A program made the position numbers and the translations under genes. Positions 7,976 to 40,020 of a stretch of 64,000 nt of DNA are shown here, piece by piece. The stretch is from a virus. Taxonomy: Duplodnaviria > Caudoviricetes. A model generated the notes under the pieces. The model saw only the letters and a list, made by a program, of their open reading frames with translations, was not told the origin of the DNA and ran no database searches. The stretch is taken from positions 12,513-76,512 of IMG/VR virus record IMGVR_UViG_3300005336_000019, one strand, 5' to 3'. Each line of letters starts with the position of its first letter. Position 1 is the stretch's first letter.

Positions 7976-8458
7976 ATGCTGGACGCCGACCTCGTCCACG
8001 AGACGGGACACTTCAGCTACGCCGACGCCGAGCACCTGGCTGACCTGTGGAACCGGGCCTACCCGGCGATGCGGCAGATCATCACCCGGTACATCGAGAG
8101 CCAGCGGGAGTACATCGAGCGGAGGGGCTGGGTCATCGACCCGAATCACCCCCACGCCGAAGTGCTCCAGGAGCGCGCCACCCCGGAACGGAAGGCCCGG
8201 TACCGGCTGAAGCTGTCGGAAGAGCTGCGCCGGGACCTCGGCCAGCTCGACCGGGGCACGCACAAGCCGTGCACCCGCAGCCCGGGATGCTTCTCGGTGA
8301 CGGCCGCCTACATGGCGGTGCGGAGCCTGATCAGTCACAGCTCCCTCAACAGTGAGGGGCTGGCCAACATCTACCGCCTGGCCGCCGATCTGGCCGAGGC
8401 GGAGGAGCGGGTCAACGAGGCCCGCAAGAAGTGGCACCAGGAACAGGAGAAGAAGTGA
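7976..8458 (+). CDS. hypothetical protein
   Basis: High GC3. Confidence 0.8.
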   Translation: MLDADLVHETGHFSYADAEHLADLWNRAYPAMRQIITRYIESQREYIERRGWVIDPNHPHAEVLQERATPERKARYRLKLSEELRRDLGQLDRGTHKPCTRSPGCFSVTAAYMAVRSLISHSSLNSEGLANIYRLAADLAEAEERVNEARKKWHQEQEKK

Positions 8459-8697
8459 ACGCAGAAGTCGAGGTCCCCGTCGCCGAGAGCATCGCCGTGG
8501 GTCTGGCGATCGTCTTCTCGGATCTTCCGCAGAGCACCATCACGTGGATGTCCGAGCTGATGGTGCGCACCTGGCACGAGGGGCCGGACCGCTCCGACGA
8601 CCTGCTCTTCAACGCCCTCGACAAGGAGGTCCGGGCGGGCAACGAGGACGCCATCCGCATGGTCCTCGCCGCCGCCCGGCGCGGTCTGAAGGTCTGA
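8455..8697 (+). CDS. hypothetical protein
   Basis: GTGA coupling. Confidence 0.8.
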   Translation: MNAEVEVPVAESIAVGLAIVFSDLPQSTITWMSELMVRTWHEGPDRSDDLLFNALDKEVRAGNEDAIRMVLAAARRGLKV

Positions 8698-8767
8698 CTC
8701 CGAGGCCGAAACCCCTGGAAGGGGGTCGTGGGACGAATGGAAGTCCCGCCTGACGATGGCCGTCAGA
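8693..8767 (+). ncRNA. Hammerhead ribozyme, type II (HHR1)
   Basis: CTGAC-TCCGA-GGCC-GAAA-CCCCT-GGAA-GGGGG-TC^-GTGGGAC-GAATGGAA-GTCCCGC-CTGACGA-T-GGCC-GTCAG; complete core, predicted cleavage after 8727. Confidence 0.9.
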
Positions 8768-8795
8768 AGAATTCGGAACGGGAGGAGAACGCATC

Positions 8796-9017
8796 ATGGA
8801 ACTGCCCAACCGCGCCGAGGTGCGCAGCCAGATCAGCTCGAAGTTCCCGGGCCTGCCCAACGACACCCTGGACTGGGTGGCGGGCATGCTCTCCGACAAG
8901 ATCGAGGCCGACTGGCAGACCGCCGACGCCGAGTTCCACCGCGAGATGGAGCGCGCGATCCGGGCCGGTGAAGAGCACGCGATCCTCGTGGCCCTCGCCG
9001 CGCTCAAGGCCGTCTGA
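8796..9017 (+). CDS. hypothetical protein directly downstream of HHR1
   Basis: RBS GGAGGAG, ATG. Confidence 0.8.
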   Translation: MELPNRAEVRSQISSKFPGLPNDTLDWVAGMLSDKIEADWQTADAEFHREMERAIRAGEEHAILVALAALKAV

Positions 9018-9032
9018 CCTACGGGTCGCATT

Positions 9033-9090
9033 GAAGGGGCTCCGGTTGCGGCCGGGGCCCCTTCTGCGTATCGTCTTTGACCTAGGCCAT
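9033..9090 (+). promoter_or_regulatory. Terminator-like hairpin with -35 (TTGCGG) in loop, -10 TATCGT and box TTGACCTAGGCCAT
   Basis: GAAGGGGCTCCGG-TTGCGG-CCGGGGCCCCTTC; 17-bp spacer to TATCGT 9069-9074; box 9077-9090. Confidence 0.7.
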
Positions 9091-9105
9091 TCGGATGGGA
9101 GAGAC

Positions 9106-9390
9106 GTGAGCGAGGACGAATTCGAAGCCCTGGCCGATGAGTTACGGGCTTCATGGAGCGGCGACCGCGAACGCTGGGACGGTCTTCGCGAGGAGCTGAC
9201 GGACAAGTCCCTGTGCCTGCGCTGGGACGGCGACCACCGCCTTCTCCTGGAGCAGCACACCAGCAGGCAGACGGCGTTGATCGCCACCACGTACGGCCGC
9301 AGGCAGGACGACCGGATCCGGTACGCCGTGATCCTGGAGCGCAGCCTGAGATCGGGCCGCATGGAGACCAAGGGGATGGAGCCCTCATGA
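9106..9390 (+). CDS. hypothetical protein containing an in-frame TTA codon
   Basis: GTG at 9106 after GGGAG; TTA at 9142. Confidence 0.75.
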   Translation: MSEDEFEALADELRASWSGDRERWDGLREELTDKSLCLRWDGDHRLLLEQHTSRQTALIATTYGRRQDDRIRYAVILERSLRSGRMETKGMEPS

Positions 9391-9707
9391 ATCACCCGGA
9401 GACCGCAGAGATCGACATTCCGGCCGTGGACGGCACGCTGCTGCACATCGTGCTGAACAAGGAGGAGGGCACCGGGAGGTTCACCTACTCCAGCATGGTC
9501 GAGGTGCAGCAGCACACCCCGTACGGCCTGCGCCCGCTGGTCACGTACAGCATGGGCGCGGTGCTGCGGGCGCCCCGCAACAAGCCGTTCCGGCTGCACG
9601 ACGGGGACGCCGGACTCGTGATCGAGGGCCACTGGCTGATCACGGTCGGGGACTGGATGGAGATGCTGAGCGAGGCCAGCGTCGACACGTGGAAGGTGGA
9701 CATCTGA
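9387..9707 (+). CDS. hypothetical protein
   Basis: ATGA coupling. Confidence 0.8.
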   Translation: MNHPETAEIDIPAVDGTLLHIVLNKEEGTGRFTYSSMVEVQQHTPYGLRPLVTYSMGAVLRAPRNKPFRLHDGDAGLVIEGHWLITVGDWMEMLSEASVDTWKVDI

Positions 9708-9907
9708 TGGCAAGCCTGTCGATCGAGTTCGACAACGACGAGAGCTACCACACGGGACCGCCGCAGGTTCCCCTCGGCAGCGACTTCGGGTACGCCTCCC
9801 TGAAGGGGTACCGGATCGACGAAGGCGGCTTCGTGGTCATGGAGTTCGACAACCACGCCATCCGCAAGGTGCCGGTCCGGCGCCTGCTGCGCATCACGGA
9901 GCTGTGA
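9707..9907 (+). CDS. hypothetical protein
   Basis: TGATG coupling. Confidence 0.75.
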   Translation: MASLSIEFDNDESYHTGPPQVPLGSDFGYASLKGYRIDEGGFVVMEFDNHAIRKVPVRRLLRITEL

Positions 9908-9908
9908 C

Positions 9909-10370
9909 ATGCCGCTGATCTGGACTCAAGGGAACCTGCTGGAGTCGGCGGCGCAAGGACTGGTCAGCCCGGTCAACTGCGTCGGCGTGCCGGGTGCCGG
10001 GCTGGCCCGGCAATTCAAGGACCGCTGGCCCATGCAGGTCGAGGAGTACGTGACCTTCTGCCGGGAGGGCCGGATGAAGCCCGGCCTGGTGCACGATGCA
10101 CTTCTGCCGGACGGGCGCCGGATCCTGAGCATCGCCACCAAGCGGCACTGGCGGGACAACTCACGGATCGAGGACGTGGATCGGGGGCTGGCCGCTCTGA
10201 AGGAGTACCTGGACGAGACGGGCCTGATCTCGGTCGCTCTCCCGGCGCTCGGCTGCGGGCTGGGCGGCCTGCCGAAGGCTCTCGTAGCCCGGCGGGTGCA
10301 GTTCTGGCTGGCCGACAATTTCTCCGTGGTCTACGTCTACGGGCTCGACGAGCCGGAGGTGTCGGCGTGA
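9909..10370 (+). CDS. Macrodomain protein (DarG/TARG1-like ADP-ribosyl hydrolase)
   Basis: GNLL, VNCVGVPGAGLARQFK, TKRHWR, ALPALGCGLGGL motifs. Confidence 0.9.
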   Translation: MPLIWTQGNLLESAAQGLVSPVNCVGVPGAGLARQFKDRWPMQVEEYVTFCREGRMKPGLVHDALLPDGRRILSIATKRHWRDNSRIEDVDRGLAALKEYLDETGLISVALPALGCGLGGLPKALVARRVQFWLADNFSVVYVYGLDEPEVSA

Positions 10371-10564
10371 GCAAGGAGATCATCCGGGTGACCGTCGTCT
10401 TCGAGTACGAGGTCGACCCGGAGTTGTACCCCGGAGCGAAAACGCCCGGCGAGCGGGCGGAAGTCGACCGGGAGAACTTCGCCAAGAACCCGGACCTGGT
10501 GGTGGAAACGCTCGCCGACAAGGGAGCGAAGTCCGTCACCCTCGGGTCTTTCACGATCAACTGA
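10367..10564 (+). CDS. hypothetical protein
   Basis: GTGA coupling. Confidence 0.75.
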   Translation: MSKEIIRVTVVFEYEVDPELYPGAKTPGERAEVDRENFAKNPDLVVETLADKGAKSVTLGSFTIN

Positions 10565-10584
10565 TCACCGGAACAGGAGAAGAC

Positions 10585-11190
10585 ATGGCGATGACCCGCG
10601 AAGAGGAGACGGCGCTGGCGAAGGAGATGGCCGAGGAGATGGGCCTGAACCTGCCGTACGCCGCCCAGGTGGGCTTCGAGTACGACGTGAAGGCGGCCCG
10701 GCAGAAGGCCGAGGAACTGCGAGACCTGGCCCGCAGGCGGGAGCAGGAGTCGCGCGACTCGTTCGATCGGTGCGACACGGACGGCGCCCTCTCGCAGTGG
10801 GCGAGCGGGATCAACGCCGAGAAGTACCGGCTCCAGGCCGACATCGTCGAGAACGGCGGCATGTGGTACTTCCCGGCCCTCTTCGACCTGGAGGGCAACC
10901 TGGTTCCGGCCCGGGAGGCGTACGGCCAGTACGGATCCTTCTGGTCTCTGCTGGACGCCGACGGGAACCGCACCGGCCAGACCTTCAACGAGTCGAAGGC
11001 CCAGAACGACAAGGTGAAGATCCGCAACGATGCCCGGAAGGGCTACTACGTCGGCTCGGTTCTGGCCCCGGCCAGAGTCGTGACGCGCGGCCAGTCCGTC
11101 ACCTCGGTCGCCTGCCACATCGACCGGAACGACGGCGGCTGGGACCCGGACGTGATGGTGCTCGACAACGGGAAGGGCGAGCAGGAGTGA
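10585..11190 (+). CDS. hypothetical phage protein
   Basis: RBS CAGGAGAAG; SFDRCDTDGALSQWA motif. Confidence 0.85.
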   Translation: MAMTREEETALAKEMAEEMGLNLPYAAQVGFEYDVKAARQKAEELRDLARRREQESRDSFDRCDTDGALSQWASGINAEKYRLQADIVENGGMWYFPALFDLEGNLVPAREAYGQYGSFWSLLDADGNRTGQTFNESKAQNDKVKIRNDARKGYYVGSVLAPARVVTRGQSVTSVACHIDRNDGGWDPDVMVLDNGKGEQE

Positions 11191-11507
11191 AGCTGGTCAG
11201 CAACACGCCCCGCCTGGAACTGCTGCGGATCGAGCTGACGACCGGCCAGTGCCCGCCGCAGTCATGTCTGGAGTGGGACGAGTTCCTGCACCTGTACGCC
11301 CTGCTGCGGCGACTCCCCGGGGCCGTCCCGGCAGTGCGCTCGGAGGTGCTGACGAAGCTGCTGGGCCGGGGCTTCGAGCACCGGTACGCCACGAACCTGA
11401 TGAGCCTGGCAACGGCGGGAACGCAGCCGCTGACCATGCTGGTTCGGCAGGCTGCGTTCCACTCGGAGATCCGGCCCCTTCGCGAAGAGGAGAAGGTGGA
11501 CAAGTGA
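11187..11507 (+). CDS. hypothetical protein
   Basis: GTGA coupling. Confidence 0.75.
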   Translation: MKLVSNTPRLELLRIELTTGQCPPQSCLEWDEFLHLYALLRRLPGAVPAVRSEVLTKLLGRGFEHRYATNLMSLATAGTQPLTMLVRQAAFHSEIRPLREEEKVDK

Positions 11508-11908
11508 TGAGCGACCCTGACGACAACAACCCGGACTTCCGGCCCGGCGGGAATGTCCAGGCCGCCGTAGCGCGCATGCTGCTCTGGCTGGAGCAGTACC
11601 CGGACGACGTGAACGTGGCAGCCCAGATCGGAAGTTCGAACGGCTTCATCACGGACGGCTGGCCGTACCGCATGTACGCCGTCGACCGCCGGGACCTGGC
11701 CGCCGTGCTGCGTCTGGTGCAGAAGCTGCCGGACTTCCAGATCTACACAGAGGACGCCTCCACGGTCTGTGAAGCGTGCGACACGAACATCACCTGGGGT
11801 GACCAGGACCCCCGGCTGTACTCGCTCGTCGAGGCCGCCGGTCAGCACGTGTGTGACCCGGGGAAGAAGGCGGCGGTCGAACGGGACCGGGCCGCTCGGA
11901 AGGTGTGA
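11507..11908 (+). CDS. hypothetical protein with CxxC...HxC motif
   Basis: TGATG coupling. Confidence 0.8.
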   Translation: MSDPDDNNPDFRPGGNVQAAVARMLLWLEQYPDDVNVAAQIGSSNGFITDGWPYRMYAVDRRDLAAVLRLVQKLPDFQIYTEDASTVCEACDTNITWGDQDPRLYSLVEAAGQHVCDPGKKAAVERDRAARKV

Positions 11909-11974
11909 GGCGCTTCGGTGGGGTCCGGCTGCGGCCGGGCCTTCGCCGTGGGATCTCACGGAACTGGAGGAGAA

Positions 11975-12247
11975 ATGCACCACAGCGAGATCGATCACGA
12001 GGCCAAGGTCAAGGAGCCCGTGGCCGACCTGGACGACTGGTACGGCGAGCGGCCGTACCTGCTGGAGGGGTTCGTCCCCGTCGACAGCAGCGACGTCATC
12101 GTGCCGGTCGACAGCGACAGCCCGGAGAGCTTCATCCTGGCCCTCACCGAGGGGCAGGCGGTTCAGGCCCTGCTGTCGCTGGCCGAGCAGATCGGCGACG
12201 TCCGGGCCGTGGAGCTGATCCAGCAGCAGGCCGCAACGCCCAAGTAG
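11975..12247 (+). CDS. hypothetical protein
   Basis: RBS GGAGGAG. Confidence 0.8.
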   Translation: MHHSEIDHEAKVKEPVADLDDWYGERPYLLEGFVPVDSSDVIVPVDSDSPESFILALTEGQAVQALLSLAEQIGDVRAVELIQQQAATPK

Positions 12248-12284
12248 CCAGGGCGAGTTCGATCAGATACAGTGGCCTAGGTCA
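12245..12284 (+). promoter_or_regulatory. Promoter TAGCCA-17-TACAGT abutting box TGGCCTAGGTCA
   Basis: Same -10/box register as at 2485-2501. Confidence 0.65.
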
Positions 12285-12300
12285 GGGAAGGAGGAAAGAC

Positions 12301-12384
12301 ATGGCAGAGAAGCTGCCCCAGCGCGAGCCGGGGAAGGCCCTCAAGGAGGCGCGCGAGCGCGAAGAGGGCCAGGGTCAGCGATGA
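12301..12384 (+). CDS. 27-aa microprotein MAEKLPQREPGKALKEAREREEGQGQR
   Basis: Strong RBS AAGGAGG, own promoter, terminator immediately after. Confidence 0.65.
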   Translation: MAEKLPQREPGKALKEAREREEGQGQR

Positions 12385-12389
12385 CCTTC

Positions 12390-12414
12390 AGGGGGCGCCC
12401 GACGGGCGCCCCCT
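12390..12414 (+). terminator. intrinsic terminator-like hairpin
   Basis: AGGGGGCGCCC-GAC-GGGCGCCCCCT. Confidence 0.7.
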
Positions 12415-12450
12415 CATTGATGCAGTGATCGGAACAGGAGAGAGAGACCC

Positions 12451-12885
12451 ATGGAGTTCCACGAGCGCTTCGCCGAGAAGGCTGCCGACACCGACTACTC
12501 CCGCTACCCCCAGCTCCAGGCGCTGAGCAAGTACGACATCAACGCGACGGCCGAGGCTCTGCGCCTGACCGCGATCCAGCTCGGCACCCACGTGCGCGGG
12601 TGGGGCATGCTGGACGACCTGACGCTCGACGAGCCGACGGTCATCACGGCCCTGCTGGCGCTGAAGCGGCGCTGGGACGACGAGGGGCACCTGGTCTCGG
12701 TCGACTTCGAGGAGTACTGGGACGCCACCGACACCCACAACTTCCCCTCCTCCCTGCTGGAGGAGATGAAGCGCCACCTCGTCCGCCAGTTCCTGGAGGG
12801 CAAGAAGGCCGAGCACGTCGCGGTCAGCAACCCGTACGGGATCTGGCTGTTCGACAAGGCCGTCCTGGAGGGGATCTTCAAGTGA
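12451..12885 (+). CDS. hypothetical protein
   Basis: High GC3, RBS. Confidence 0.85.
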   Translation: MEFHERFAEKAADTDYSRYPQLQALSKYDINATAEALRLTAIQLGTHVRGWGMLDDLTLDEPTVITALLALKRRWDDEGHLVSVDFEEYWDATDTHNFPSSLLEEMKRHLVRQFLEGKKAEHVAVSNPYGIWLFDKAVLEGIFK

Positions 12886-13166
12886 TCGACTCCCTCTCGA
12901 ACCTGCCGACCGGGGTCAACGAGCTGTACCCCAACTGGCAGGCCGCCTTCGCCGAGATCACCGTCCGCCCCCGGGAGGATGCGGGTCGGAAGCCGGAGAT
13001 GCCCCTGCTCTCCCGTGGGCACTGCTTCGCGGACGACCGGGGTGACGTCTGGACGGTCCTTCGCGCTACCGTCGTGACGGAGACCGACGAGTTCAGCGGT
13101 GACGAGCTTCCATACCGCTACGCCTACGTCTACGAGGTCGTGAGCGGCAGGCGTCAGCTCGACTGA
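12882..13166 (+). CDS. hypothetical protein
   Basis: GTGA coupling. Confidence 0.75.
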   Translation: MIDSLSNLPTGVNELYPNWQAAFAEITVRPREDAGRKPEMPLLSRGHCFADDRGDVWTVLRATVVTETDEFSGDELPYRYAYVYEVVSGRRQLD

Positions 13167-13172
13167 GCCACC

Positions 13173-13212
13173 CAAGGGGCGGCCCCGGATCGGGGTCGCC
13201 CCTTGTTGTGTT
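13173..13212 (+). terminator. intrinsic terminator
   Basis: CAAGGGGCGGCCCC-GGATC-GGGGTCGCCCCTTG plus T-rich tail. Confidence 0.75.
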
Positions 13213-13219
13213 TCCAGCG

Positions 13220-13245
13220 TGACCTAGGCCGGTTGATGATAGACT
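13220..13245 (+). promoter_or_regulatory. Box TGACCTAGGCCG and extended -10 TGATAGACT
   Basis: Box 13220-13231; TAGACT 13240-13245. Confidence 0.65.
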
Positions 13246-13267
13246 CCCGTGCACGGAAGGAGAGGAA

Positions 13268-13762
13268 ATGGCAAACGACTTGGTGAGATTCCCGGAGGCC
13301 GGGGATCACTGGGAGGAGATACCGGGGCCCGGCATGTACGTGCTGGCGGTTCTCCCCAGGAAGGCTGAGCCCGACCAGTGCGCCGTGGGCGCCGCCATCC
13401 TCATGCTGCGCCCACAGGGGCGCCTGCTCACCCCGGTCGACCCGCTGTGGCCGACGGAGGAGAGCCGGAACTACGACGCCAGCCTGCTGGAGGAGGCGGC
13501 ACAGCTCTTCGAGGAGAGGGGCGAGCGGGTCAAGGCCGCGACGATACGGGCCCAGTTCCCCACCACGGACCTGTCGGTCGAGGTCGTCCAGGCCACACAC
13601 ATGGGCTCGACAGCGCGCACCCTGCGCAGCACGAAGACCGGCGAGTACTGGCAGGCCCGATGGGAAGACCTCACGCCGTCCGGAATCCTGCACCTGCACC
13701 AGATCCACACCTGCTTCGTACGGCCGCCCGTACTGATCACGTTCCTGGGGGACGAGGACTGA
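13268..13762 (+). CDS. hypothetical protein
   Basis: RBS AAGGAGAGG. Confidence 0.8.
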   Translation: MANDLVRFPEAGDHWEEIPGPGMYVLAVLPRKAEPDQCAVGAAILMLRPQGRLLTPVDPLWPTEESRNYDASLLEEAAQLFEERGERVKAATIRAQFPTTDLSVEVVQATHMGSTARTLRSTKTGEYWQARWEDLTPSGILHLHQIHTCFVRPPVLITFLGDED

Positions 13763-14142
13763 TGAAGCTGTTCGGCAAGAAGAAGCCGGAAGACGAGAAG
13801 CCGCCGACCGGCCAGAGGCCCCGCATCCGGGGGCACGTCGAAGCGTTCTACGTCCAGCGGGCGTCGGAGGCATTCATCGAGGTCATCATGAAGGCTTCCG
13901 ACGCGCAGCGCCCCGGCAGGATCGGAGCCGACCACAGTTCCGACGTGGACCGGGCACAGGTGCTGGAGGCTGCCGTCTCGGTGGCCGCTCTGCACTGCAA
14001 CGAAGATCTGCTTTCCCGGCTGTACTCCTTCCGGGACGCCGTGCTCGAACTCACCATGGGCGGCGGCTCGGAAGCCGAAGTACGCGCCACCCGAGAGCAC
14101 TTCACGAAGGGGTGCCGGGAAGCGCTCGGCACCGACCAGTAG
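13762..14142 (+). CDS. hypothetical protein
   Basis: TGATG coupling. Confidence 0.8.
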   Translation: MKLFGKKKPEDEKPPTGQRPRIRGHVEAFYVQRASEAFIEVIMKASDAQRPGRIGADHSSDVDRAQVLEAAVSVAALHCNEDLLSRLYSFRDAVLELTMGGGSEAEVRATREHFTKGCREALGTDQ

Positions 14143-14163
14143 AACCGGAGAGGGAGAAGAGCA

Positions 14164-14679
14164 GTGCGACTCATGCACCAGCACGACCTGGGCGGACCGG
14201 GCCGGGTGATCGTCATGGCAGGTGACCTCCCCGTCACCATCACGGTCGACGAACGGGCCGAGTACCGCTCGGTGGACGTCCTGGCCGATCGCGGCCTGGC
14301 CGCCTGGGCAGGACCCATCGGCCCGGGAGGCGTCTCGTTCGGGGTCGAGGTCGGCAGGCCCACCCTGATCAACACCCTGCGCGACAAGCTGGGTCTGCGT
14401 ATGGGTACCTCAGTGTCCGGCGGCGGCTCGGTCTCCTCGTCCGGGCGCGGCTCGATCGCGGCCGGGGGGAGCATCGTCAACTGTGCCACCGGCCGGGGTG
14501 CGAAGGTCACCGTGAGCGGAGCGGAGCAGAAGCAGCCGGAGGTCGGCGTACATCTGACTGTTCCCAGGCTGTGCATCTTCGAGATCCGGTCCCACGGCGG
14601 CATCCGCGTTCTGCACGACGGTATCGAGCTGTCCTTCCAGGCGGCCGAGGAGCGCGGGCTTCTGGCGGCGGCCCGATGA
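14164..14679 (+). CDS. hypothetical protein, Gly/Ser-rich (possibly truncated DUF4097-like)
   Basis: RBS GGGAGAAG; VHLTVP motif like the 7144 gene. Confidence 0.75.
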   Translation: MRLMHQHDLGGPGRVIVMAGDLPVTITVDERAEYRSVDVLADRGLAAWAGPIGPGGVSFGVEVGRPTLINTLRDKLGLRMGTSVSGGGSVSSSGRGSIAAGGSIVNCATGRGAKVTVSGAEQKQPEVGVHLTVPRLCIFEIRSHGGIRVLHDGIELSFQAAEERGLLAAAR

Positions 14680-14894
14680 TCTCGGCGGTCGGCGACTTCC
14701 TCGTGGAGCGGTTCCCCGGAGCGGGCCCGAACCGCCGGGTGGCACGCATCGTCAGCAGCCAGCCGGAGGAGGGGCGCCTTCGGGTGTCCCGGACCGTCCA
14801 GGCGGGAGGCCGTCGCTACACGGTGGCCTTCCACTTCCCTCCCGGCATCCGGCAGGGCCGGGCCATCGCCTGGCCGAGGGAGGCGGAGCGCTGA
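14676..14894 (+). CDS. hypothetical protein
   Basis: ATGA coupling. Confidence 0.7.
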   Translation: MISAVGDFLVERFPGAGPNRRVARIVSSQPEEGRLRVSRTVQAGGRRYTVAFHFPPGIRQGRAIAWPREAER

Positions 14895-15319
14895 TGAGCC
14901 TGCGCCAGGAAGCCGAAGCACTGTTCTTCGGAGTCGGAGTCCAGGAGCTGTACGGCCACTGGTCCTGGGCCGACCGGGGCTCGATGTTCATTCGGTTCGG
15001 CGAGTGGGAGCCGGGCCAGGCGCCCGACACCTGGGCCTACCGGGTTCACGCACCTCACCCGCTTGACAGTGATCGCCGGATCGACAAGGTGATCACGTAC
15101 TCGGTGCTGTACACAGCAGCCGAGCTGATCGCCTACGAGAACGCCGACACCGAGAAGCCGTTCCACCCGCCGAGCGAAGAAACCGGTCGAGCCTGTTCCA
15201 TGTGGGTCTTCAGCGACGAACTCGGCACGTTCGACCCTCACACTCTGGACCAGGTTCTCCAGGTTGCCGTGTTCGGCGGCGTGAAGTACCCCCACTTCGA
15301 GCCCCGCAACCGGGGCTGA
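14894..15319 (+). CDS. hypothetical protein
   Basis: TGATG coupling. Confidence 0.8.
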   Translation: MSLRQEAEALFFGVGVQELYGHWSWADRGSMFIRFGEWEPGQAPDTWAYRVHAPHPLDSDRRIDKVITYSVLYTAAELIAYENADTEKPFHPPSEETGRACSMWVFSDELGTFDPHTLDQVLQVAVFGGVKYPHFEPRNRG

Positions 15320-15337
15320 CGGAAAGCGAGAAGAGAC

Positions 15338-15667
15338 GTGAAGCACGAGTTCGCCATCGACTACGCCGGGCTCACTCCGCAGCAGAAGCTCGTGATTCTG
15401 GAGGAGATGGGATTCAAGGAGATTCCGCCCTCCGAGCACGGCACGAACTGTCTGTCCCGGCAGGGCAGCGGCATCATCTGCGACTGTCTCCAGGGCGTGA
15501 CGACCTGGGGCGCTCCGCAGGACGTGAAGAAGTACCTGGGCGAGACGCACGAGGAACGCGCCGAGTTTGCGGCCCGGCGCCAGCTCTACCTGAACGAGGG
15601 CGAGGGTGAGAGCCCCGGATCCTGGATCTATCACCTGGAGAAGAACGCCCCCCGCTACTGGCACTGA
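15338..15667 (+). CDS. hypothetical protein
   Basis: RBS, high GC3. Confidence 0.8.
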   Translation: MKHEFAIDYAGLTPQQKLVILEEMGFKEIPPSEHGTNCLSRQGSGIICDCLQGVTTWGAPQDVKKYLGETHEERAEFAARRQLYLNEGEGESPGSWIYHLEKNAPRYWH

Positions 15668-15682
15668 GGAACGGAGAAGAGC

Positions 15683-15985
15683 ATGGCGAAGATCGATGTG
15701 AACGAGGTCCAGGGCCTCTTCCGGGTCGGTCTGGCCACGGACCAGAAGGGCAACGAGGTCTACGTGCTGGAGATCCTGGGGATCCCGGTTCTGTACGCCG
15801 ACGCCCACGAGTTCGAGGCGGGCCACCAGGACGCCGAGGACTGGCAGGAGACCTTCGAGACGCGACTGGCCCGGATGCTGGCCAAGGTGCTGACGGAGGG
15901 CTACGACCACGACTTCGTGAAGTGGCGCACCGAATCGCCGACCGGCCGTGACGTGTACCGCCTCGGCCCCTTCGGGGAGTCGTGA
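15683..15985 (+). CDS. hypothetical protein (paralog family B)
   Basis: VLEILGIPV motif. Confidence 0.8.
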   Translation: MAKIDVNEVQGLFRVGLATDQKGNEVYVLEILGIPVLYADAHEFEAGHQDAEDWQETFETRLARMLAKVLTEGYDHDFVKWRTESPTGRDVYRLGPFGES

Positions 15986-16257
15986 TGGACGCCATCCGGA
16001 TCGGGAAGACCGAGGAGAACGGCCAGCCCCTGATCGTCGTCGAGCTGTTCGGTGTTCCGCTGGCCAGTTCGGTGCACAAGGTCGCCGAGTACGACGAGGA
16101 CCCCGAAGGGTTCACGAAGTGGTGGCGGGAGTACTTCGCCCGTCAGATCGTCAGCATGCTGGCGGAGGAACTGCACCAGGAGCGCCGGGTCACCGGCTGG
16201 CTGATGGCCACGAGGCTGTCACCGAGGCCGCCCGGCCTGCCGGTGGAGGAGGCGTGA
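15982..16257 (+). CDS. hypothetical protein (paralog family B)
   Basis: VVELFGVPL motif. Confidence 0.8.
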   Translation: MMDAIRIGKTEENGQPLIVVELFGVPLASSVHKVAEYDEDPEGFTKWWREYFARQIVSMLAEELHQERRVTGWLMATRLSPRPPGLPVEEA

Positions 16258-16538
16258 ACCCCGAACTGTTCAAGGCGGGAAGCGTCGAGCTGCCGAACGG
16301 CGGGTGCATCACCGTCGTGGAATTCATGGGGCATCCGATCGCCGAGGGCCCGGCCGAGGCCCTGGATGGCGAGGGTGCGGCCGAGAGGGTTCAGGAGGCT
16401 TTCTGTGCTGCTCTCGTCGCCGCCCTGTCCATGGTGATGGGGAGCGAGCAGTTCGGCCGGTACGCGCCCAGGGAGTGGACGTACTGGCACCCGATGGCCC
16501 CGCCCCTGGCGAGGCTTCCGAAGGGAGAAGAGGGATGA
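16254..16538 (+). CDS. hypothetical protein (paralog family B)
   Basis: VVEFMGHPI motif. Confidence 0.8.
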   Translation: MNPELFKAGSVELPNGGCITVVEFMGHPIAEGPAEALDGEGAAERVQEAFCAALVAALSMVMGSEQFGRYAPREWTYWHPMAPPLARLPKGEEG

Positions 16539-16783
16539 AGGGAATGGACGGGCAGCTCATGCGAGCCGTGGCCCGGCTCCACGACGACGAGCTGGAAACC
16601 CGGCGCCGCTGGGCCCAGCACATCCGGGAGGAGTTCGGGAAGTACCACGACCACTCCGGCGGCGGCGAGTGCGGCGCCTGCGGGGCGATCCAGGCGGCGA
16701 ACTGGATGGACCCGGACTATGTCAAGGATGGCCCGCTGGCGGAGCCGTTCGGGACCTGGCGGGACCGTCACCCCAGCATGTGA
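16535..16783 (+). CDS. hypothetical protein (HxH...CxxC)
   Basis: ATGA coupling. Confidence 0.75.
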   Translation: MKGMDGQLMRAVARLHDDELETRRRWAQHIREEFGKYHDHSGGGECGACGAIQAANWMDPDYVKDGPLAEPFGTWRDRHPSM

Positions 16784-16784
16784 T

Positions 16785-16854
16785 CTGACCAGAGGCCGAA
16801 ACCGGGCAGCCAGCCCGGTCGTGCAGTGAGACTGCACCTGACGATGGCCGTCAG
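16785..16854 (+). ncRNA. Hammerhead ribozyme, type II (HHR2)
   Basis: CTGAC-CAGA-GGCC-GAAA-CCGGGC-AGCCA-GCCCGG-TC^-GTGCAG-TGAGA-CTGCAC-CTGACGA-T-GGCC-GTCAG; predicted cleavage after 16820. Confidence 0.9.
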
Positions 16855-16870
16855 TGAGAGAGGAAGGGTG

Positions 16871-17065
16871 ATGGCGAAGCGACAGAAGACGGTGGACTCG
16901 GTCTACGACTGGGCCGCCCGTCATGATGTACCGGCACCCGACGCCTTCGCGGTGAGCCACGTCGGGCTCGACGGTCACGACAGGCTTCTCAGGCTGGCCG
17001 CTGCGCGCTGGCGCCGCCTGGTGGCGACGAAGAAGACGGGCTTCCCGCTCATCGACGGGGACTGA
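16871..17065 (+). CDS. hypothetical protein directly downstream of HHR2
   Basis: RBS GAGGAAGG. Confidence 0.7.
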   Translation: MAKRQKTVDSVYDWAARHDVPAPDAFAVSHVGLDGHDRLLRLAAARWRRLVATKKTGFPLIDGD

Positions 17066-17125
17066 AGCAGCTCGGAAGGTGTCCGGAAGCCGGGCGAACT
17101 GATTCGGAAGGGACGAGGAAGAGGC

Positions 17126-17602
17126 ATGGAACTCACGGAACCGAAGCGTGGCGACAAGGTCGTCTACCAGGGACAGCTCCGCACGATCGAGGGGTTCGAC
17201 GAGGATCACGGCACCCACCTGGGGATGGGCGCCTGGATCTCGATCAACGAGTACGAGAAGAACGGTGATGGTGTGTGGGTTCGCGCCGATTCGCCCCGTA
17301 CCTACCTGATCGGCGAGCCCTACGAGAACTACCGCTCCTCGCGCACGGGTGTCGCCGTGATCCGGCCCGCCGTCTACCAGAGGGGCAGCACGGAGAAGGT
17401 CATCACCACCTCCCCCTGCTGCACCCTGAACGTCCGGCACCTCAACTACGCGGACGTCAACTCCGACCTGGCCAAGAGGACCGGCGGCTGGAGCGAGACG
17501 TGCACGCAGTGCGGCTGGCACTACGCGGTCTCCCTCGTCTCCCAGACCAACGACCCCCGCCTCGGCCTGTACGGCGTGCGCTGGGAGTCCAAGGGGTTCT
17601 GA
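17126..17602 (+). CDS. hypothetical protein, zinc-ribbon-like
   Basis: SPCC...CTQC. Confidence 0.8.
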   Translation: MELTEPKRGDKVVYQGQLRTIEGFDEDHGTHLGMGAWISINEYEKNGDGVWVRADSPRTYLIGEPYENYRSSRTGVAVIRPAVYQRGSTEKVITTSPCCTLNVRHLNYADVNSDLAKRTGGWSETCTQCGWHYAVSLVSQTNDPRLGLYGVRWESKGF

Positions 17603-17617
17603 AAGGGTCGAATCAAC

Positions 17618-18151
17618 ATGAATCAGGCACAACAGCAGGAAGCGGAGATCTTCGACGTTGACGGCACCCTGTGCGACGTCAGCAGCGTGCGCCACTACGT
17701 CACTCCTCCGAACCGCGACTTCCACTCCTTCCACATGGCTTCCGCCTTCTGCCCGCCACACCCCGAGGTAGTCGAGCGGGTGCACGAGGCCAAGGCGAAA
17801 GGCCGGGCCGTCCTCGTAGTGACCGCCCGCATGGCCCGGTACCGGACCCTCACCCGGAAGTGGCTGGAGAGCTGCCAGATCCCGTTCGACAGCATCTGGA
17901 CGCGGGCGAACGACGACTTCCGCAAGGACGCGATCGTGAAGCGGGAGATCCTGGCGAAGATCCGGGCCAACGGGTTCGTCGTGATGAAGGCGCACGACGA
18001 CAACCCGGCCGTGGTCGAGGTCTGGGAGGACGAGGGGATCGAGACCAAGATCGTGCCCGGCTGGGACGATCAGTTCACTGGCCTCCTGCTGCCGCAGGAC
18101 GGCTTGACCGTGGTCAGGGAGTCTGACCGCATCGGAAAGGGAGAGAAGTGA
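17618..18151 (+). CDS. HAD-family phosphatase, like the polynucleotide kinase 3'-phosphatase domain
   Basis: IFDVDGTL, VVTAR, R..D...K, HDDNP motifs. Confidence 0.9.
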   Translation: MNQAQQQEAEIFDVDGTLCDVSSVRHYVTPPNRDFHSFHMASAFCPPHPEVVERVHEAKAKGRAVLVVTARMARYRTLTRKWLESCQIPFDSIWTRANDDFRKDAIVKREILAKIRANGFVVMKAHDDNPAVVEVWEDEGIETKIVPGWDDQFTGLLLPQDGLTVVRESDRIGKGEK

Positions 18152-18414
18152 CCATCAAGATCAAGCCGCTGGGCAAGCGGCCCGACTACTTCGACGGCGA
18201 GTTCGAGGCGACCGAGATCCGCCACGAGCCCTACGACTGGGACGTCTGGCCGACCGGCCCCGTCTTCCCAGAGGGGCACATCTTCCAGGACAAGGACGGC
18301 AACGCCTACGAGATCGTCGTCCCCCGTACCGTCCAGGAGTCCAGGCCCGCCCACTCCGTCCGGTACGTCCACGTCTACCTGTGCCGCCCGGCCGACCCGA
18401 AGGACGCCGTCTGA
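18148..18414 (+). CDS. hypothetical protein
   Basis: GTGA coupling. Confidence 0.75.
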   Translation: MTIKIKPLGKRPDYFDGEFEATEIRHEPYDWDVWPTGPVFPEGHIFQDKDGNAYEIVVPRTVQESRPAHSVRYVHVYLCRPADPKDAV

Positions 18415-18905
18415 TGCTCTCCGTCACCGACGTGCTGACCCTCATGGCCGAGGGCAAGCCGCTCCCGCAGCAGGAGTTCCCCGACATCACCCAGGAGCAG
18501 ATCGACGACCTCCAGGAGTTCGAACCCGCCCTGCTGAACCGGCTGATCGAGTCGGAGCAGGGCGGCGAGGAGTCCGTCGATACCGTCCTGGCCGAACTCC
18601 AGCAGAAGGTGGACCAGCACGGCTGGTACCCGGTGGTCGCCACTCTCTGCTGGCAGTTCGCGCACCGGTACCACGAGGACATGGTGCCGGTGAACCTCCA
18701 GCTCTCCGACGGCACGGTGGGACTGCTGAAGATGCTCCCCATCGCCAGCCGGGCAGAGGAGAAGGACGAGGGTGCCTGGACGATTCCGTTCGCCATGCTG
18801 GCCAGCCTGGGCGAGGAGGAGGCTCTGGCGTTCACCGTCGGCGCCGCCATGTGCGCGGCCGTCGGATTCATCCAGTCCACCCTGGAAGAGGAGGCCCGAG
18901 GGTGA
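18414..18905 (+). CDS. hypothetical protein
   Basis: TGATG coupling. Confidence 0.8.
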   Translation: MLSVTDVLTLMAEGKPLPQQEFPDITQEQIDDLQEFEPALLNRLIESEQGGEESVDTVLAELQQKVDQHGWYPVVATLCWQFAHRYHEDMVPVNLQLSDGTVGLLKMLPIASRAEEKDEGAWTIPFAMLASLGEEEALAFTVGAAMCAAVGFIQSTLEEEARG

Positions 18906-19327
18906 GCACCGACGACATCTACCTCTGCCCGACCTGCGGAAAGCCGTTCGACAAGAGCGACCGGCTCTTCGATTTCGCCATCGCGGCGCACGAGAAGGAC
19001 CACACGCCGCAGCGGAACAACCCGGCGAACATGATCCGCTGGAACGAGGACGGCCTGATGTGGTGCTGCGTCCTGTGCGGTGCACCGATGCACATCGGCG
19101 AGTACACAGCCCGCCAGATGATCATCGGTCACTGCCGGGTGGTGCACGACTCCGTGACCGCAGGCTCTTCTTCCGCCCCCGTTACGGCCGGGGGCGGCCG
19201 GAGTTCCAGCGGCTCGCGCGGGTTCGGCGAGGCGGTCGGCGACATCGTCGAGGACTGCGCCGAGGGAATCGGCAAGGTCTTCAAGGCCATCGGGGAAGCT
19301 GTCGGCGACGCCTTCTCCGGCAACTAG
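18902..19327 (+). CDS. C2H2-like zinc-finger protein
   Basis: CPTC...HEKDH and CVLC...HCRVVH. Confidence 0.75.
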   Translation: MSTDDIYLCPTCGKPFDKSDRLFDFAIAAHEKDHTPQRNNPANMIRWNEDGLMWCCVLCGAPMHIGEYTARQMIIGHCRVVHDSVTAGSSSAPVTAGGGRSSSGSRGFGEAVGDIVEDCAEGIGKVFKAIGEAVGDAFSGN

Positions 19328-25738: not shown

Positions 25739-26455
25739 TCAGGCGTTCTGCGCGGCGTTCCCGGCAGCGACGGCGGCGTTGATGAACGCCTCCACGTTGC
25801 CGTGCTCGACGTTCACGCGGGCCTTGCGCTTGCGCAGCTCCCACGTGGTGGTCGGGCGGCCGGAGCCGTCGAGGACCCGGTCGAGGACGCAGACGATCAC
25901 GCAGTTCTCGCGGCCGACCAGCGAGGGACGGATGCAGAACTGCTTGTTGTTGGCCGTGGGCTCGCCGTCGTAGACGGTGAACAGGACGTTGCTCGCGCCC
26001 TGGAAGCCCTGGTCCTTCATCGCCTTGTTCTTCTTCTTGAACGCGGCGACCTGGACCACGATGCGGTGGAACTCGGCGGGGATCTGGTCGAGGTGCAGGA
26101 TCACGGCCTCGTCGTCGCCGTCCTGGGCCTCGGCCCCGGTGATGGCGTCACCCGTGTGCCGCACCGAGCCGTCGCCGGGCTGGCCGTGCAGGGGGTTCTT
26201 GTAGTTCTCGTCCCAGCCGACGCAGAGGGTGACCGGGTCGTTGTCCTGGAAGAGGACGGCGGCGGCGTCGAGGTCCGCGCCCGCCTTCTTCGAGGCTCGG
26301 CCGAAGATGCCTCCACGGCCCTTGGTGCTGGCGTCCCACGCGGCGCCGACCGAGATGGTTCCGGTGACCTGGGCGACGTCGTCCATGCCCAGTACGGGCA
26401 GTCCCGCCGGGGCGAGCTGCGCGTCCGACAGGGTTTCCTTGGTCATGTCCGCCAT
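25739..26455 (-). CDS. TerD/TerZ-family protein
   Basis: VGAAWD, ADLDAAAV, HTGDAITG, DDEAVILHLDQIP. Confidence 0.9.
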   Translation of the reverse strand: MADMTKETLSDAQLAPAGLPVLGMDDVAQVTGTISVGAAWDASTKGRGGIFGRASKKAGADLDAAAVLFQDNDPVTLCVGWDENYKNPLHGQPGDGSVRHTGDAITGAEAQDGDDEAVILHLDQIPAEFHRIVVQVAAFKKKNKAMKDQGFQGASNVLFTVYDGEPTANNKQFCIRPSLVGRENCVIVCVLDRVLDGSGRPTTTWELRKRKARVNVEHGNVEAFINAAVAAGNAAQNA

Positions 26456-34515: not shown

Positions 34516-35028
34516 TCAGCCGATCCGGCCGCCCGGCCAGACGAACGTTTTGATCTCGGTGTTCTTCAAGATCTTCAAGCACCCTGCGCAGGGCTGCTCG
34601 GTGATGTACATCGTGGCACCGACCAGGCGGCTGCGATCCGAGACATCCAGCAGGGCGTTCATCTCGGCGTGCACCGCGATGCACGTGCCGGGCCCGGTGT
34701 CGTACGAACTCCCGGGGGCCACCGACCAGGTGCAGGGCCACATCTCGCCGCAGGCGCACTGGCCGGTGAAAACCCGGCACTTGCAGTCCGGCGGGTGTGG
34801 CGGCCCAGGGCACCGCGAGATCTCGTAGTGCCTGCCGCGCGGGCACTCACCGGCCAGGCAGCTCTCGCCACCGCGCGGGCCGCCGTTGTAGCCGCAGCCG
34901 ATGACCCGATGAGCCTCATCCAGCAGAACGGCCCCGACCTGTCGCCTGGTGCAGTCACCCCGGAGGGAGACGGCCTCGGCGATGCCGAGGGCCCAGGCGT
35001 CCCAGTCGGGGCGCTCCGCCGTTCTCAC
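34516..35028 (-). CDS. dCMP deaminase with Cys-rich insertion
   Basis: [25 protein letters not shown]. Confidence 0.92.
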
Positions 35029-35231
35029 GAAGTGACCGTGACGCCCTGCGCCTCGATCCCCTTCTTGCCCTGCTGGGTCTCGAAGACCACCCGCTGACCC
35101 TCCTCCAGGCTGCGGTAGCCCTGGGCGTTGATCTGCGAGTAGTGCACGAAGACGTCGGGGCCACCGCCGTCCTGGGCGATGAAGCCGAAGCCCTTTTCGG
35201 CGTTGAACCACTTCACGGTGCCAGCAGGCAT
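35025..35231 (-). CDS. cspA: Cold-shock protein
   Basis: [29 protein letters not shown]. Confidence 0.97.
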
Positions 35232-37642: not shown

Positions 37643-37786
37643 TTTTCCTTTTCCTCTCCGATACGAGAATGCGGGGGTCGCCTACTACGACCGCAGGGGA
37701 TCTTTCACCAGGAGAGCTGCCACGCAGATCACTGGAGTTGGCCTCACCCTGCCCAAGCGGAGTAAGGATTTCCGCAGGCACCGCCG

Positions 37787-37859
37787 TGCTCCTGGCAGGA
37801 ATTGAACCTGCGACATCCGGATCCGGAATCCGGCGCTCTATCCCCTGAGCTACAGGAGC
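37787..37859 (-). tRNA. tRNA-Arg(CCG)
   Basis: Cloverleaf; CCGGA-TTCCGGA-TCCGG; GGTTCAA T-loop; no encoded CCA. Confidence 0.95.
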
Positions 37860-37868
37860 TTTCCTCTC

Positions 37869-38264
37869 TCACCAGATGTCGTACAGCATCCGGCGAGGAA
37901 CCTTCTCGGCCTTCTCGTACAGCCGACGTTCGAGTTCGCCCTTCGTGCGGCGCCCGGCTTCCAGCTTGCTCTTCACGTAGCGCCGGTTGGCGCGCTCGTG
38001 CTTACCAGCCCAGTAGGTCCGGCTGGAACTGGGGGTCCAGGCCCCGGTGTAGGTCCACCAGCGAGCGGTACGCCTCACCTTCCGGGGCTGCGGCCTGCGG
38101 CCCTGCCTCTCGGCGTCACGGAGTTCCGCAGCGCTGTAGCGCAGGTCGTAGACCTCGTGCTCGCGCACCGGAGTGATCGGCCGCTTGCGCCAGTACATCC
38201 TGTAGCCGTCAGGCCAGTCGCGCTGGTCGAACTTTCCGGGCGTGTGATGCGTCGTCTTGCCCAT
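37869..38264 (-). CDS. very basic (Arg/Trp-rich) hypothetical protein inside tRNA array
   Basis: RBS AGGAGG, ATG; MGKTTHH...HERANRR...LYDIW. Confidence 0.8.
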   Translation of the reverse strand: MGKTTHHTPGKFDQRDWPDGYRMYWRKRPITPVREHEVYDLRYSAAELRDAERQGRRPQPRKVRRTARWWTYTGAWTPSSSRTYWAGKHERANRRYVKSKLEAGRRTKGELERRLYEKAEKVPRRMLYDIW

Positions 38265-38365
38265 CGGAATTCATCCTCCTAGGGCCGCGAATTTCGCGGA
38301 CCTAGGTGAATCCGGTGACGATGTCCATCACCCCTCCAAGCTGTTCAGGCACGGTTGTTCCCAAG

Positions 38366-38463
38366 TGCGCGAGGCAGGGATCGAACCTGCACTGGACGTC
38401 TCCACAGGGCCTTTCCGAGTGCCCTGTTCGCCGGGCTCTGACTCGGAGTTCCCTTACACGCGC
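38366..38463 (-). ncRNA. tRNA-like RNA with non-canonical D region and 10-nt anticodon-position loop (possible pseudoknot)
   Basis: Acceptor GCGCGTG/CTCGCGC-A, T arm GCAGG-TTCGATC-CCTGC, variable arm, ACAGGGC-ACTCGGAAAG-GCCCTGT; TCCGAGT in D region complementary to ACTCGGA. Confidence 0.75.
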
Positions 38464-38554
38464 GACCGCACTGCGCAATGCGGTCCTTTACCACCGACTG
38501 TAATTCCGACCGGGTTTTTCAGACCACGGAAGGATATGGTGTCGTCGGCACACG

Positions 38555-38627
38555 CTCTCCTGACTGGACTTGAACCAGTAACATCCGGATTAACAATCCG
38601 GCGCTCTGCCGGTTGAGCTACAGGAGA
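38555..38627 (-). tRNA. tRNA-Asn(GTT)
   Basis: CCGGA-TTGTTAA-TCCGG; cloverleaf. Confidence 0.95.
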
Positions 38628-38762
38628 TCGAATCTGAAATTGTAGTGGGCCTCATCCCTAGCACCACGCGGCGCACCGACCTTGTTCTGCTGCGCTTCTC
38701 AACTGTTCCGGTTGTCGGGCGGATGGCAACCGGACCGCACTCCTATCTCCGCCACGTGCACG

Positions 38763-38834
38763 CTCCCCCGTCTGGACTTGAACCAAAACTTCCGATTCCA
38801 GAGACCGGCGGTCTGCCAATTAACCTACGGGGGA
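38763..38834 (-). tRNA. tRNA-Gln(CTG)
   Basis: CCGGT-CTCTGGA-ATCGG; U1-A72. Confidence 0.92.
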
Positions 38835-38853
38835 TCGCTCTTGAATTGTTGGC

Positions 38854-38945
38854 AACCGGACGGCAATGCTTCCACGCATGGACTATCTTCGCATGTATGT
38901 CCCACCCGCCACAGTGGGGCTGCGTTGATAGCTTACCGTCCGGCC
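38854..38945 (-). ncRNA. putative structured RNA (multi-branch) between tRNA-Phe and tRNA-Gln
   Basis: 13-bp closing stem GGCCGGACGGTAA/TTGCCGTCCGGTT plus four internal helices. Confidence 0.55.
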
Positions 38946-38947
38946 AG

Positions 38948-39023
38948 TGGCCCCGGCCCGATTTGAACGGGCGACCTCTCGCTTTTCAGGCGAGCGCTCT
39001 TTCGCGAACTGAGCTACAGGGCC
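38948..39023 (-). tRNA. tRNA-Phe(GAA)
   Basis: CTCGC-CTGAAAA-GCGAG. Confidence 0.93.
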
Positions 39024-39174
39024 TTGCACCCCTTGATGTATAGCTGGGCAGGGGCCGCCCTCCACTCGCCTCCCGGAGAAGGTTGGCTCATGGACTCGCT
39101 TTGCCTCACTCTCTGCCCGGTGGATAGTGGCCTTGTGAGCCACGAACTCCACCGGAATCTGCCTCCGAAGCCAG

Positions 39175-39248
39175 CGGTCCCGACGGGATTTGAACCCGCG
39201 ACCTCTCGGATGACAACCGAGTGCTCTGCCGAACTGAGCCACGAGACC
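39175..39248 (-). tRNA. tRNA-Asp(GTC)
   Basis: CTCGG-TTGTCAT-CCGAG; G73. Confidence 0.95.
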
Positions 39249-39273
39249 ATTGCTTCTTACCGCTGTTGAGTTG

Positions 39274-39320
39274 AAAAGGGAGCCCCGCTTTCCCGGCCTC
39301 CGCCTTACGGCGGGGCTCCC
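39274..39320 (-). terminator. intrinsic terminator within tRNA array
   Basis: GGGAGCCCCGC...GCGGGGCTCCC-TTTT on minus. Confidence 0.65.
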
Positions 39321-39343
39321 GATAGACCCGTCAGGGGGTCTCG

Positions 39344-39417
39344 TGGAGATGGAGGGATTCGAACCCCCGTCCTTCCGATCCGTAGTCGGCTGCCCCATCC
39401 AACTGGGCCACACCTCC
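39344..39417 (-). tRNA. tRNA-Arg(ACG)
   Basis: GCCGA-CTACGGA-TCGGA; GGTTCGAATCC. Confidence 0.93.
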
Positions 39418-39507
39418 ATCAGCCTTTCACCCTTCGCGCCAAGCGTGACCAAGGCAGGATCCAGGCCGACCGCATCCAAGCCCCAGGAAGCCGTGAGGAT
39501 GCGGCAG

Positions 39508-39580
39508 TACGCCCTACTGGACTTGAACCAGTGACACGAGGATTAAGAATCCCCTGCTCTGCCAACTGAGCTAAGGGCGC
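39508..39580 (-). tRNA. tRNA-Lys(CTT)
   Basis: GGGGA-TTCTTAA-TCCTC. Confidence 0.95.
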
Positions 39581-39587
39581 GCGTTCT

Positions 39588-39710
39588 TCAGTTCTGTCTG
39601 TCGTCCTTGGGGCCCCAGTAGTGGCCCGTGTAGACGTGGACGGGGTATCCGTCCTTCTGCACCTTCTTCAGGTGCCCTTCGTACGTCCGAGCCTTGCACT
39701 TACAGCTCAC
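39588..39710 (-). CDS. 40-aa basic peptide within tRNA array
   Basis: RBS AGAAGG, GTG; MSCKCKARTYEGHLKKVQKDGYP... Confidence 0.55.
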   Translation of the reverse strand: MSCKCKARTYEGHLKKVQKDGYPVHVYTGHYWGPKDDRQN

Positions 39711-39860: not shown

Positions 39861-39866
39861 CCTTCG

Positions 39867-39940: not shown

Positions 39941-39945
39941 CTGCG

Positions 39946-40018: not shown

Positions 40019-40020
40019 AT

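Follow-up and report, generated by a model that had tools for sequence, protein, structure and literature searches.

Type II hammerhead ribozymes that flank prophage genes were described in 2011 (Perreault et al., PMC3088659), and the role proposed in the passages of that paper used here is the cutting of long phage transcripts into gene-length mRNAs. The excerpted text of a 2019 review repeats this idea, with the purpose still undefined (PMC6765202). Here we describe a 64,000-nucleotide stretch of phage DNA (IMG/VR record IMGVR_UViG_3300005336_000019; hereafter the window) that spans bases 12513–76512 of a 76.5-kb, ~40% complete viral contig and carries two hammerhead ribozymes, HHR1 and HHR2. 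The source is a roughly 190-kb, Streptomyces-type phage with three type II hammerheads, two of them in the window. These are conserved, sense-strand elements that probably cut themselves between cistrons and separate messages, and a phosphatase gene downstream of HHR2 appears to be an independent accessory gene.

Hammerheads between phage genes are an already known arrangement, and the structural twist of the present copies is modest. As far as the passages used here describe the 2011 hammerheads, the copies share their core, their permuted topology (stem II open, stems I and III capped) and their placement, flanking single genes or short gene blocks. Unlike that type, modeled in Rfam as Hammerhead_II (RF02276), all copies of the source phage score below the Rfam cut-off. 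They also show no evident pseudoknot of at least four pairs between loop I and the 3' tail, which is usual for type II, and instead end in a GUCAG tail complementary to both a 5' CUGAC arm and the core. By term search, the main text of PMC3088659 contains neither "stop codon" nor "Shine-Dalgarno" and describes no core-masking tail.

Layout and placement of the hammerheads

HHR1 and HHR2 follow one layout. From 5' to 3', a CUGAC arm, a bulge of 4–5 nt, GGCC and GAAA precede the stem III hairpin, a U and the cleavage-site nucleotide C17; the stem I hairpin, CUGACGA, a U, GGCC and GUCAG follow. In HHR1 the upstream parts are the CUGAC clamp strand (8694–8698), GGCC (8704–8707), GAAA (8708–8711), stem III (8711–8726) and C17 (8727), and the downstream parts are stem I (8728–8734 with 8743–8749), CUGACGA (8750–8756), the U, GGCC (8758–8761) and GUCAG (8762–8766). 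With stem II open and stems I and III capped by hairpin loops, the topology is type II. The two copies have an identical core, an identical stem II and an identical 18-nt 3' block, CCTGACGATGGCCGTCAG, while the sequences of stems I and III differ between them and pair in both. A preliminary description, made from the letters of the window, had placed two sense-strand hammerheads here, and its implied cut sites (8728 and 16820) agree with ours. It had also taken the contrast between shared core and rewritten but paired stems as a sign of selection, a pattern that is present in the sequence and is backed by the structure model and covariation described below.

The third copy lies upstream of the window on the same contig and keeps the layout, with a GUA cleavage triplet and stem II as GGAC/GUCC; the triplets of the source phage are GUC, GUC and GUA. 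All three copies hold CUGACGA and GAAA, the C3-U4-G5-A6-N7-G8-A9 and G12-A13-A14 core. Loop I (UGA or UGG) could form about three pairs at most with UCA of the tail. By eye, two lineages (window and Kela) have a stem II bulge in their HHR1-type copies, UCC or CCC, that matches GGA or GGG of loop I.

Every copy sits at a gene boundary, as the preliminary description had noted for HHR1 and HHR2. The upstream stop TGA (8695–8697) falls inside the 5' CUGAC arm of HHR1, and the arm of HHR2 begins 2 nt past the stop of the upstream open reading frame (ORF), which ends at 16783. Downstream start codons (8796 for HHR1; 16868 or 16871 for HHR2) lie 30 nt and 14–17 nt past the ribozyme 3' ends, behind purine-rich ribosome-binding sites (RBSs). 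Around the third copy, in contig coordinates, the stop of ORF 9355–9663 is within the 5' CUGAC and the next ORF begins at 9756. The same placement held in a second scan of viral sequences in which the tail was not fixed, an independent sample of 134 distinct copies. Of 132 usable copies, 119 had a long ORF that stopped no more than 14 nt from stem II, mostly 1–3 nt before it, and in 114 of all 134 a downstream ORF began 5–70 nt after the hammerhead. Placement between a stop and an RBS is the rule for phage type II hammerheads.

Table 1. Features of the window and its contig (window positions unless stated; R1, covariance model described in the text; GC3, G+C content at third codon positions)
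Feature	Position	Strand	Details
HHR1, type II hammerhead	8694..8766	+	Predicted cut 8727/8728; R1 60.4 bits, E 1.3e-14/2.5e-14; copy outside the seed
HHR2, type II hammerhead	16785..16854	+	Predicted cut 16820/16821; R1 94.2 bits; copy within the seed
Third hammerhead, ~2.8 kb upstream of window start	contig 9660-9735		R1 32.7 bits, unseeded; Rfam 16.6 bits
ORF upstream of HHR1, 88 aa	8431..8697	+	GC3 0.85; no Pfam or PHROG match
Small gene downstream of HHR1, 73 aa	8796..9017	+	GC3 0.96; no family match; RBS GGGAGGAG at 8780-8787
Terminator-like hairpin	9033..9064	+	14 bp and U-rich tail; -34 kcal/mol, z -5.5, 0/200 shuffles as good
GC-rich intergenic hairpin without U tract	~12388..12413	+	z -2.5; location of chance mir-612 match
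Intrinsic-terminator-like hairpin	13173..13205	+	15 bp, then TTGTGTTT; -36.3 kcal/mol, z -5.5
ORF upstream of HHR2, 159 aa	16304..16783	+	Stop 16781-16783; no family match (Pfam, PHROG)
Small gene downstream of HHR2, 64 aa	16871..17065	+	Alternative GTG start 16868
ORF between HHR2 and phosphatase gene, 158 aa	17126..17602	+	Function unassigned
Stand-alone T4-Pnkp-type HAD (DxDxT) phosphatase, 177 aa	17618..18151	+	PF25109 66.2 bits (cut-off 27.6), E 4.4e-18

Structural and comparative evidence

Core strings alone are weak evidence for a ribozyme. The pattern CGAAAN{20,50}CTGANGA had three matches in the window against 0.55 expected, and the match besides HHR1 and HHR2 (45389–45444, minus strand) has no stems and was taken as noise. 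The case beyond chance therefore rests on a structure model and on covariation. We built a covariance model (R1) seeded only with five HHR2-type copies, from the window, the phages Kela and JustBecause, and two from the phage Satis. R1 found exactly three strong copies each in the contig, Kela, JustBecause and Satis, all on the gene strand, and two to three in three further near-complete relatives. Its weak matches (E 0.016–0.74; for example, Kela 88531–88586) were stemless or within coding sequence and were set aside as noise.

The stems vary in ways that keep their pairing. Stem II of the HHR1-type copy in Kela is GACC/GGUC where the window has GGCC/GGCC, a compensatory change, and stems I and III of syntenic HHR2-type copies have been rewritten across relatives. 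A MAFFT alignment of nine first copies misaligned the stems and was not used. In a wider pattern scan of viral contigs at least 125 stretches matched, 80 loci were taken, and R1 matched 35 copies at E ≤ 0.01. Among 45 aligned copies (44 distinct rows), 94.8% of cells pair, where shuffles give 67.2%; both sides change in 19 of 22 pairs, a level reached by none of 500 shuffles, and slid registers gave 33–45%. These stems lie outside the search pattern that was used to pick loci. All 45 copies keep the A15.1–U16.1 pair, and at position 17 there are 41 with C, two with A, two with U and none with G. The core is the same in every one of the 45, in part because the search pattern demanded it.

Folding agrees with the model. 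The minimum-free-energy (MFE) fold of full-length HHR2 is the active three-way junction (z -4.0), that of the third copy is likewise the active fold with its clamp, and that of HHR1 is nearly so, holding the clamp and stems II, III and I. In its wider context, full-length HHR2 also has a predicted 9-bp helix between upstream coding sequence (16766–16774) and the start region (16866–16874; z -3.4). The idea that cleavage frees the RBS was dropped, since the complementary upstream sequence is missing in Kela.

Rfam captures this subclass poorly. At the gathering threshold, which is 37 bits for RF02276, a scan of the window returned 11 tRNAs and no hammerhead, and contig bases 1–12600 gave nothing at E ≤ 0.1. 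A permissive scan of 8000–19000 recovered HHR2 at 31.7 bits together with chance matches to mir-1231, mir-612 and psbNH, of which the latter two fall on terminator-type hairpins. Only two matches reached the cut-off among 20 hammerhead-bearing loci holding 26 R1 matches, which places the subclass at the edge of RF02276. Dense arrays are common: one 112-kb viral contig (L182–L187) has at least ten copies in ~8 kb, and another locus (L067) has five in 2.4 kb.

The source phage belongs to a group with cultured members. Window positions 8300–18500 align at 83–84% nucleotide identity, over 18–38% of the query, with six Streptomyces phages of ~185 kb (Kela, JustBecause, Satis, Kradal, EhyElimayoE and Quantum). 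The preliminary description had named absence of the ribozymes at syntenic sites in relatives as evidence against its proposal, and the sites behave differently in this respect. The HHR2 site is occupied in all eight relatives examined and the third-copy site in all six whole records searched. The HHR1 site is present in Kela, JustBecause and the relative G002, and is empty or damaged elsewhere: Satis has the flanking genes 25 nt apart, the relative G030 has a plain spacer, and in a third, G028 (L306:315-391, minus strand), a deletion joins the HHR1-type 5' half to the last ~38 nt of the downstream gene, having removed the catalytic CUGANGA strand and most of that gene.

Two rearrangements stand out. 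Behind the HHR1-type copy of Kela stands a gene with no relation to 8796–9017 of the window, which puts the ribozymes at mosaic joints. In Satis and G002 the HHR2 site is doubled, with two hammerheads 312–314 nt apart around one small gene (L006:9589-9970 in Satis; L295:7889-8272), a 72-codon homologue of window 16871–17065. This geometry could release unit-length RNA. The role of bacterial and phage hammerheads is described as still open in the excerpted review (PMC6765202), and the phage group lends itself to testing it: each of three relatives cultured on Streptomyces hosts has three copies, and the losses in Satis, G030 and G028 amount to natural knock-outs of the HHR1 site. We found no paper on ribozymes in Streptomyces phages.

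Probable cleavage between cistrons

From the observed sequence, fold, conservation and placement, we infer that the hammerheads cut themselves in vivo and that this affects expression of the genes around them. The ribozymes would be transcribed within the sense RNA of a same-strand array of small genes. There the three-way junction would form, with the open stem II lengthened by the CUGAC/GUCAG clamp and stems I and III as hairpins, and self-cleavage would follow after C17. The upstream RNA would then carry a 2',3'-cyclic phosphate behind its terminal stem III hairpin, and the downstream RNA would open directly with the hairpin of stem I, bearing a 5'-OH. On this 3' fragment the GUCAG tail can re-pair with the CUGAC of the core, which would set a second hairpin immediately upstream of the RBS; for HHR1, the 3' product is predicted to fold into just these two, stem I and then CUGACG/CGUCAG. 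The outcome would be separate messages that are structured at their ends and may be independent of the neighboring gene in stability and translation.

For HHR1 the expected product can be outlined. The hairpin at 9033–9064 lies directly 3' of the HHR1-downstream gene and recurs after the homologous gene in Satis. A cut at HHR1 combined with this hairpin would release a single-gene message of ~340 nt. Engineered insulators of the RiboJ type, which are type III, satellite-derived hammerheads set at promoter junctions, drop the upstream RNA by self-cleavage and leave a hairpin 5'-OH leader before the RBS. The phage copies may work alike by analogy, and differ from these in being natural, type II and placed between cistrons.

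Several observations weigh against this account. HHR1 is dispensable, as its loss in Satis and G030 and its half-deletion in G028 make clear. All three copies fall under the Rfam cut-off (HHR1 was not reported at all), and each carries an extra U between A9 and G10.1, yet that U is found in 53 of the 134 independent copies. The alignment behind the pair counts was fitted to the model and its loci were picked by core strings, so that core conservation is partly a matter of construction. Finally, in assembled contigs of one RNA-seq run from one study, one contig begins 4 nt beyond the cut predicted for HHR2. It covers 16825–17085 without differences but has 12 unmatched letters at that end, and this 12-mer occurs nowhere in the viral contig or in the collected loci; we did not count it as a cleaved 5' end.

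The GUCAG tail raises the possibility of a further layer of control. Core position N7 and the initial letter of the tail covary across phage type II hammerheads, with G answering a C at N7 and A answering a U. Where N7 is C (CUGACGA cores), GUCAG occurs in 32 of 134 copies and AUCAG in none; where it is U (CUGAUGA cores), AUCAG occurs in 7 of 130 and GUCAG in two, which belong to another tail class. Fisher's test, with no correction for relatedness, gives p 1.6e-6. The core-complementary xUCAG tail is present in about a quarter of the copies of CUGACGA type. At least four AUCAG copies (L356, L411 and two in L418) have no CUGAU arm in the 26 nt upstream of stem II, which points to the core itself as the partner of the tail. 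These patterns suggest a conserved hairpin in which the tail can mask the catalytic core from C3 to N7. If so, a whole subclass of type II hammerheads may have a built-in core mask, relevant to the design of switchable ribozymes and to annotation, where copies miss the Rfam cut-off.

A more ambitious version of this idea makes the tail a selected off-switch, alternating between the 5' CUGAC arm (on) and the CUGAC of the core (off). The arm that holds the stop codon would compete for the tail, and occupancy by the terminating ribosome would decide whether the ribozyme is armed; self-cleavage would then be a read-out of upstream translation. The N7–tail covariation and the AUCAG copies without a CUGAU arm are consistent with such gating, as are the stop codons inside or beside the 5' arm in all three source-phage copies and the covarying clamp in the three copies with a tail other than GUCAG. 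The full-length MFE fold, however, is the active one, so the mask may matter only after cleavage, and the 5' arm accompanies the tail in just 7 of 32 tail-bearing copies (compared to 7 of 102 tail-less copies; p 0.04, with several copies related). We regard gating by the ribosome as a doubtful extension, and constitutive separation of messages by self-cleavage as the better account.

The Pnkp-type phosphatase and the gene array

The gene 764 nt past HHR2 is a genuine Pnkp-type HAD enzyme by family and motifs, so the PNKP-like phosphatase that the preliminary description had placed ~0.8 kb after HHR2 was correctly recognized. Beyond its Pfam match it aligns with phrog_415 (4.7e-39) and with the T4 Pnkp phosphatase domain (5uj0, 1.7e-9; 1ltq, 1.5e-8). 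Like T4 Pnkp, with which it is homologous over residues 9–144, it has the DVDGT nucleophile motif (D13-V-D15-G-T17), R102-K103-D104 and D127-D128. Unlike T4 Pnkp, it stands alone, with no 5'-kinase domain and no adjacent ligase. No terminator-like site was detected on the plus strand between HHR2 and the gene, which is probably on the same transcript as the HHR2 3' product.

The preliminary description went on to join the two, proposing that the phage cuts its polycistronic RNA by self-cleavage and may heal or ligate the ends, with the phosphatase stripping the 2',3'-cyclic phosphate. The first half of that proposal fits the placement and conservation of the ribozymes, which are compatible with separation of cistrons; healing and ligation found no support, and we consider them improbable. 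The proximity of the gene, without a detected terminator-like site in between, and the retention of both ribozymes and phosphatase in every lineage relative examined do speak for a partnership, but two parts kept together inside a single lineage, at 83% nucleotide identity, amount to no more than synteny. The five recovered loci with phosphatase relatives all belong to that lineage and so provide no independent test of co-occurrence. Across hammerhead-bearing viral contigs, PF25109 exceeded its cut-off in 2 of 27, both relatives of the source phage, and in none of the 25 outside the lineage (11 of them at least 90% complete), where one sub-threshold match reached 18 bits.

The other enzymes that healing calls for were likewise scarce. 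The search for further ribozymes and repair genes that the preliminary description had suggested yielded the third hammerhead. Five records of the phage group, among them the complete or nearly complete G028 (100%; its phosphatase 97% identical) and G030 (99%), held no RtcB and no 5'-kinase of the AAA_33 family (other kinase families not searched); a PF09414 RNA ligase occurred in Kela alone, ~60 kb from the ribozymes and beside a Ro/TROVE gene. Pfam scans of the window ORFs gave no ligase, kinase or RtcB, and no RNA ligase with the phosphatase (PF09511, the T4 Rnl1 type, and 2H/LigT not searched). Joining by a classical ATP-dependent ligase would depend on a 5' kinase, and the searches made turned up neither such a kinase nor a co-encoded RNA ligase, the two marks of a heal-and-seal system. 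Among the papers listed, none linked hammerheads with Pnkp. We read the phosphatase as an accessory gene in its own right rather than a partner of the ribozymes. Because hammerhead phages outside the lineage have no PF25109 match above cut-off, the presence of a Pnkp-like phosphatase beside a ribozyme is no ground for assuming a system that processes and heals RNA. Separately, Kela also encodes an RlaP-type nucleotidyltransferase (PF10127), which together with the ligase makes up an RNA-repair-like kit far from the ribozymes (L157:34649-37085, L156:19344-20036).

The motifs could instead be decaying repeats or recombination scars without present function. Loss or truncation of HHR1 in three relatives and the unrelated gene after the Kela copy, at a mosaic joint, are what decay would leave behind, but cores have stayed intact and stems have changed in compensation across copies and relatives, and the HHR2 site is occupied throughout the eight relatives; we hold decay to be very improbable. 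Ends with a 5'-OH and a cyclic phosphate are those joined by RtcB-type ligases. That a host ligase circularizes the RNA between two hammerheads is hardly credible here, despite the closely paired hammerheads around one small gene in Satis and G002, given that 8.1 kb and three terminator-like hairpins separate the window copies (for which reason the preliminary description, rightly, had thought circularization of the whole piece unlikely), that no second ribozyme follows the HHR2 gene and that the phage group has no RtcB in its five records.

Self-cleavage between cistrons would act within an array of small genes that, judging from layout alone, may be early. In Kela the homologous region lies within ~100 small, mostly hypothetical genes on one strand, running inward from the right genome end. 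The small gene after HHR1 has homologues in Satis, G002, G030 and the relative G029. Between the two hammerheads the window encodes a macro-domain protein (9909–10370, plus strand; PF01661, 4.3e-12). The Pfam match gives no support for the label "ADP-ribosyltransferase" that its homologues bear in Kela, Satis and JustBecause. Elsewhere the window carries 11 tRNA genes (37786–40485, minus strand: Arg twice, Asn, Gln, Phe, Asp, Lys, Met, Thr, Pro and Trp) in an array syntenic with that of Kela. It also encodes TerD (25739–26455), cold-shock (35025–35231), NUDIX (51628–52080) and HIT (54635–55225) domain proteins and a DnaB-type helicase (45569–46930).

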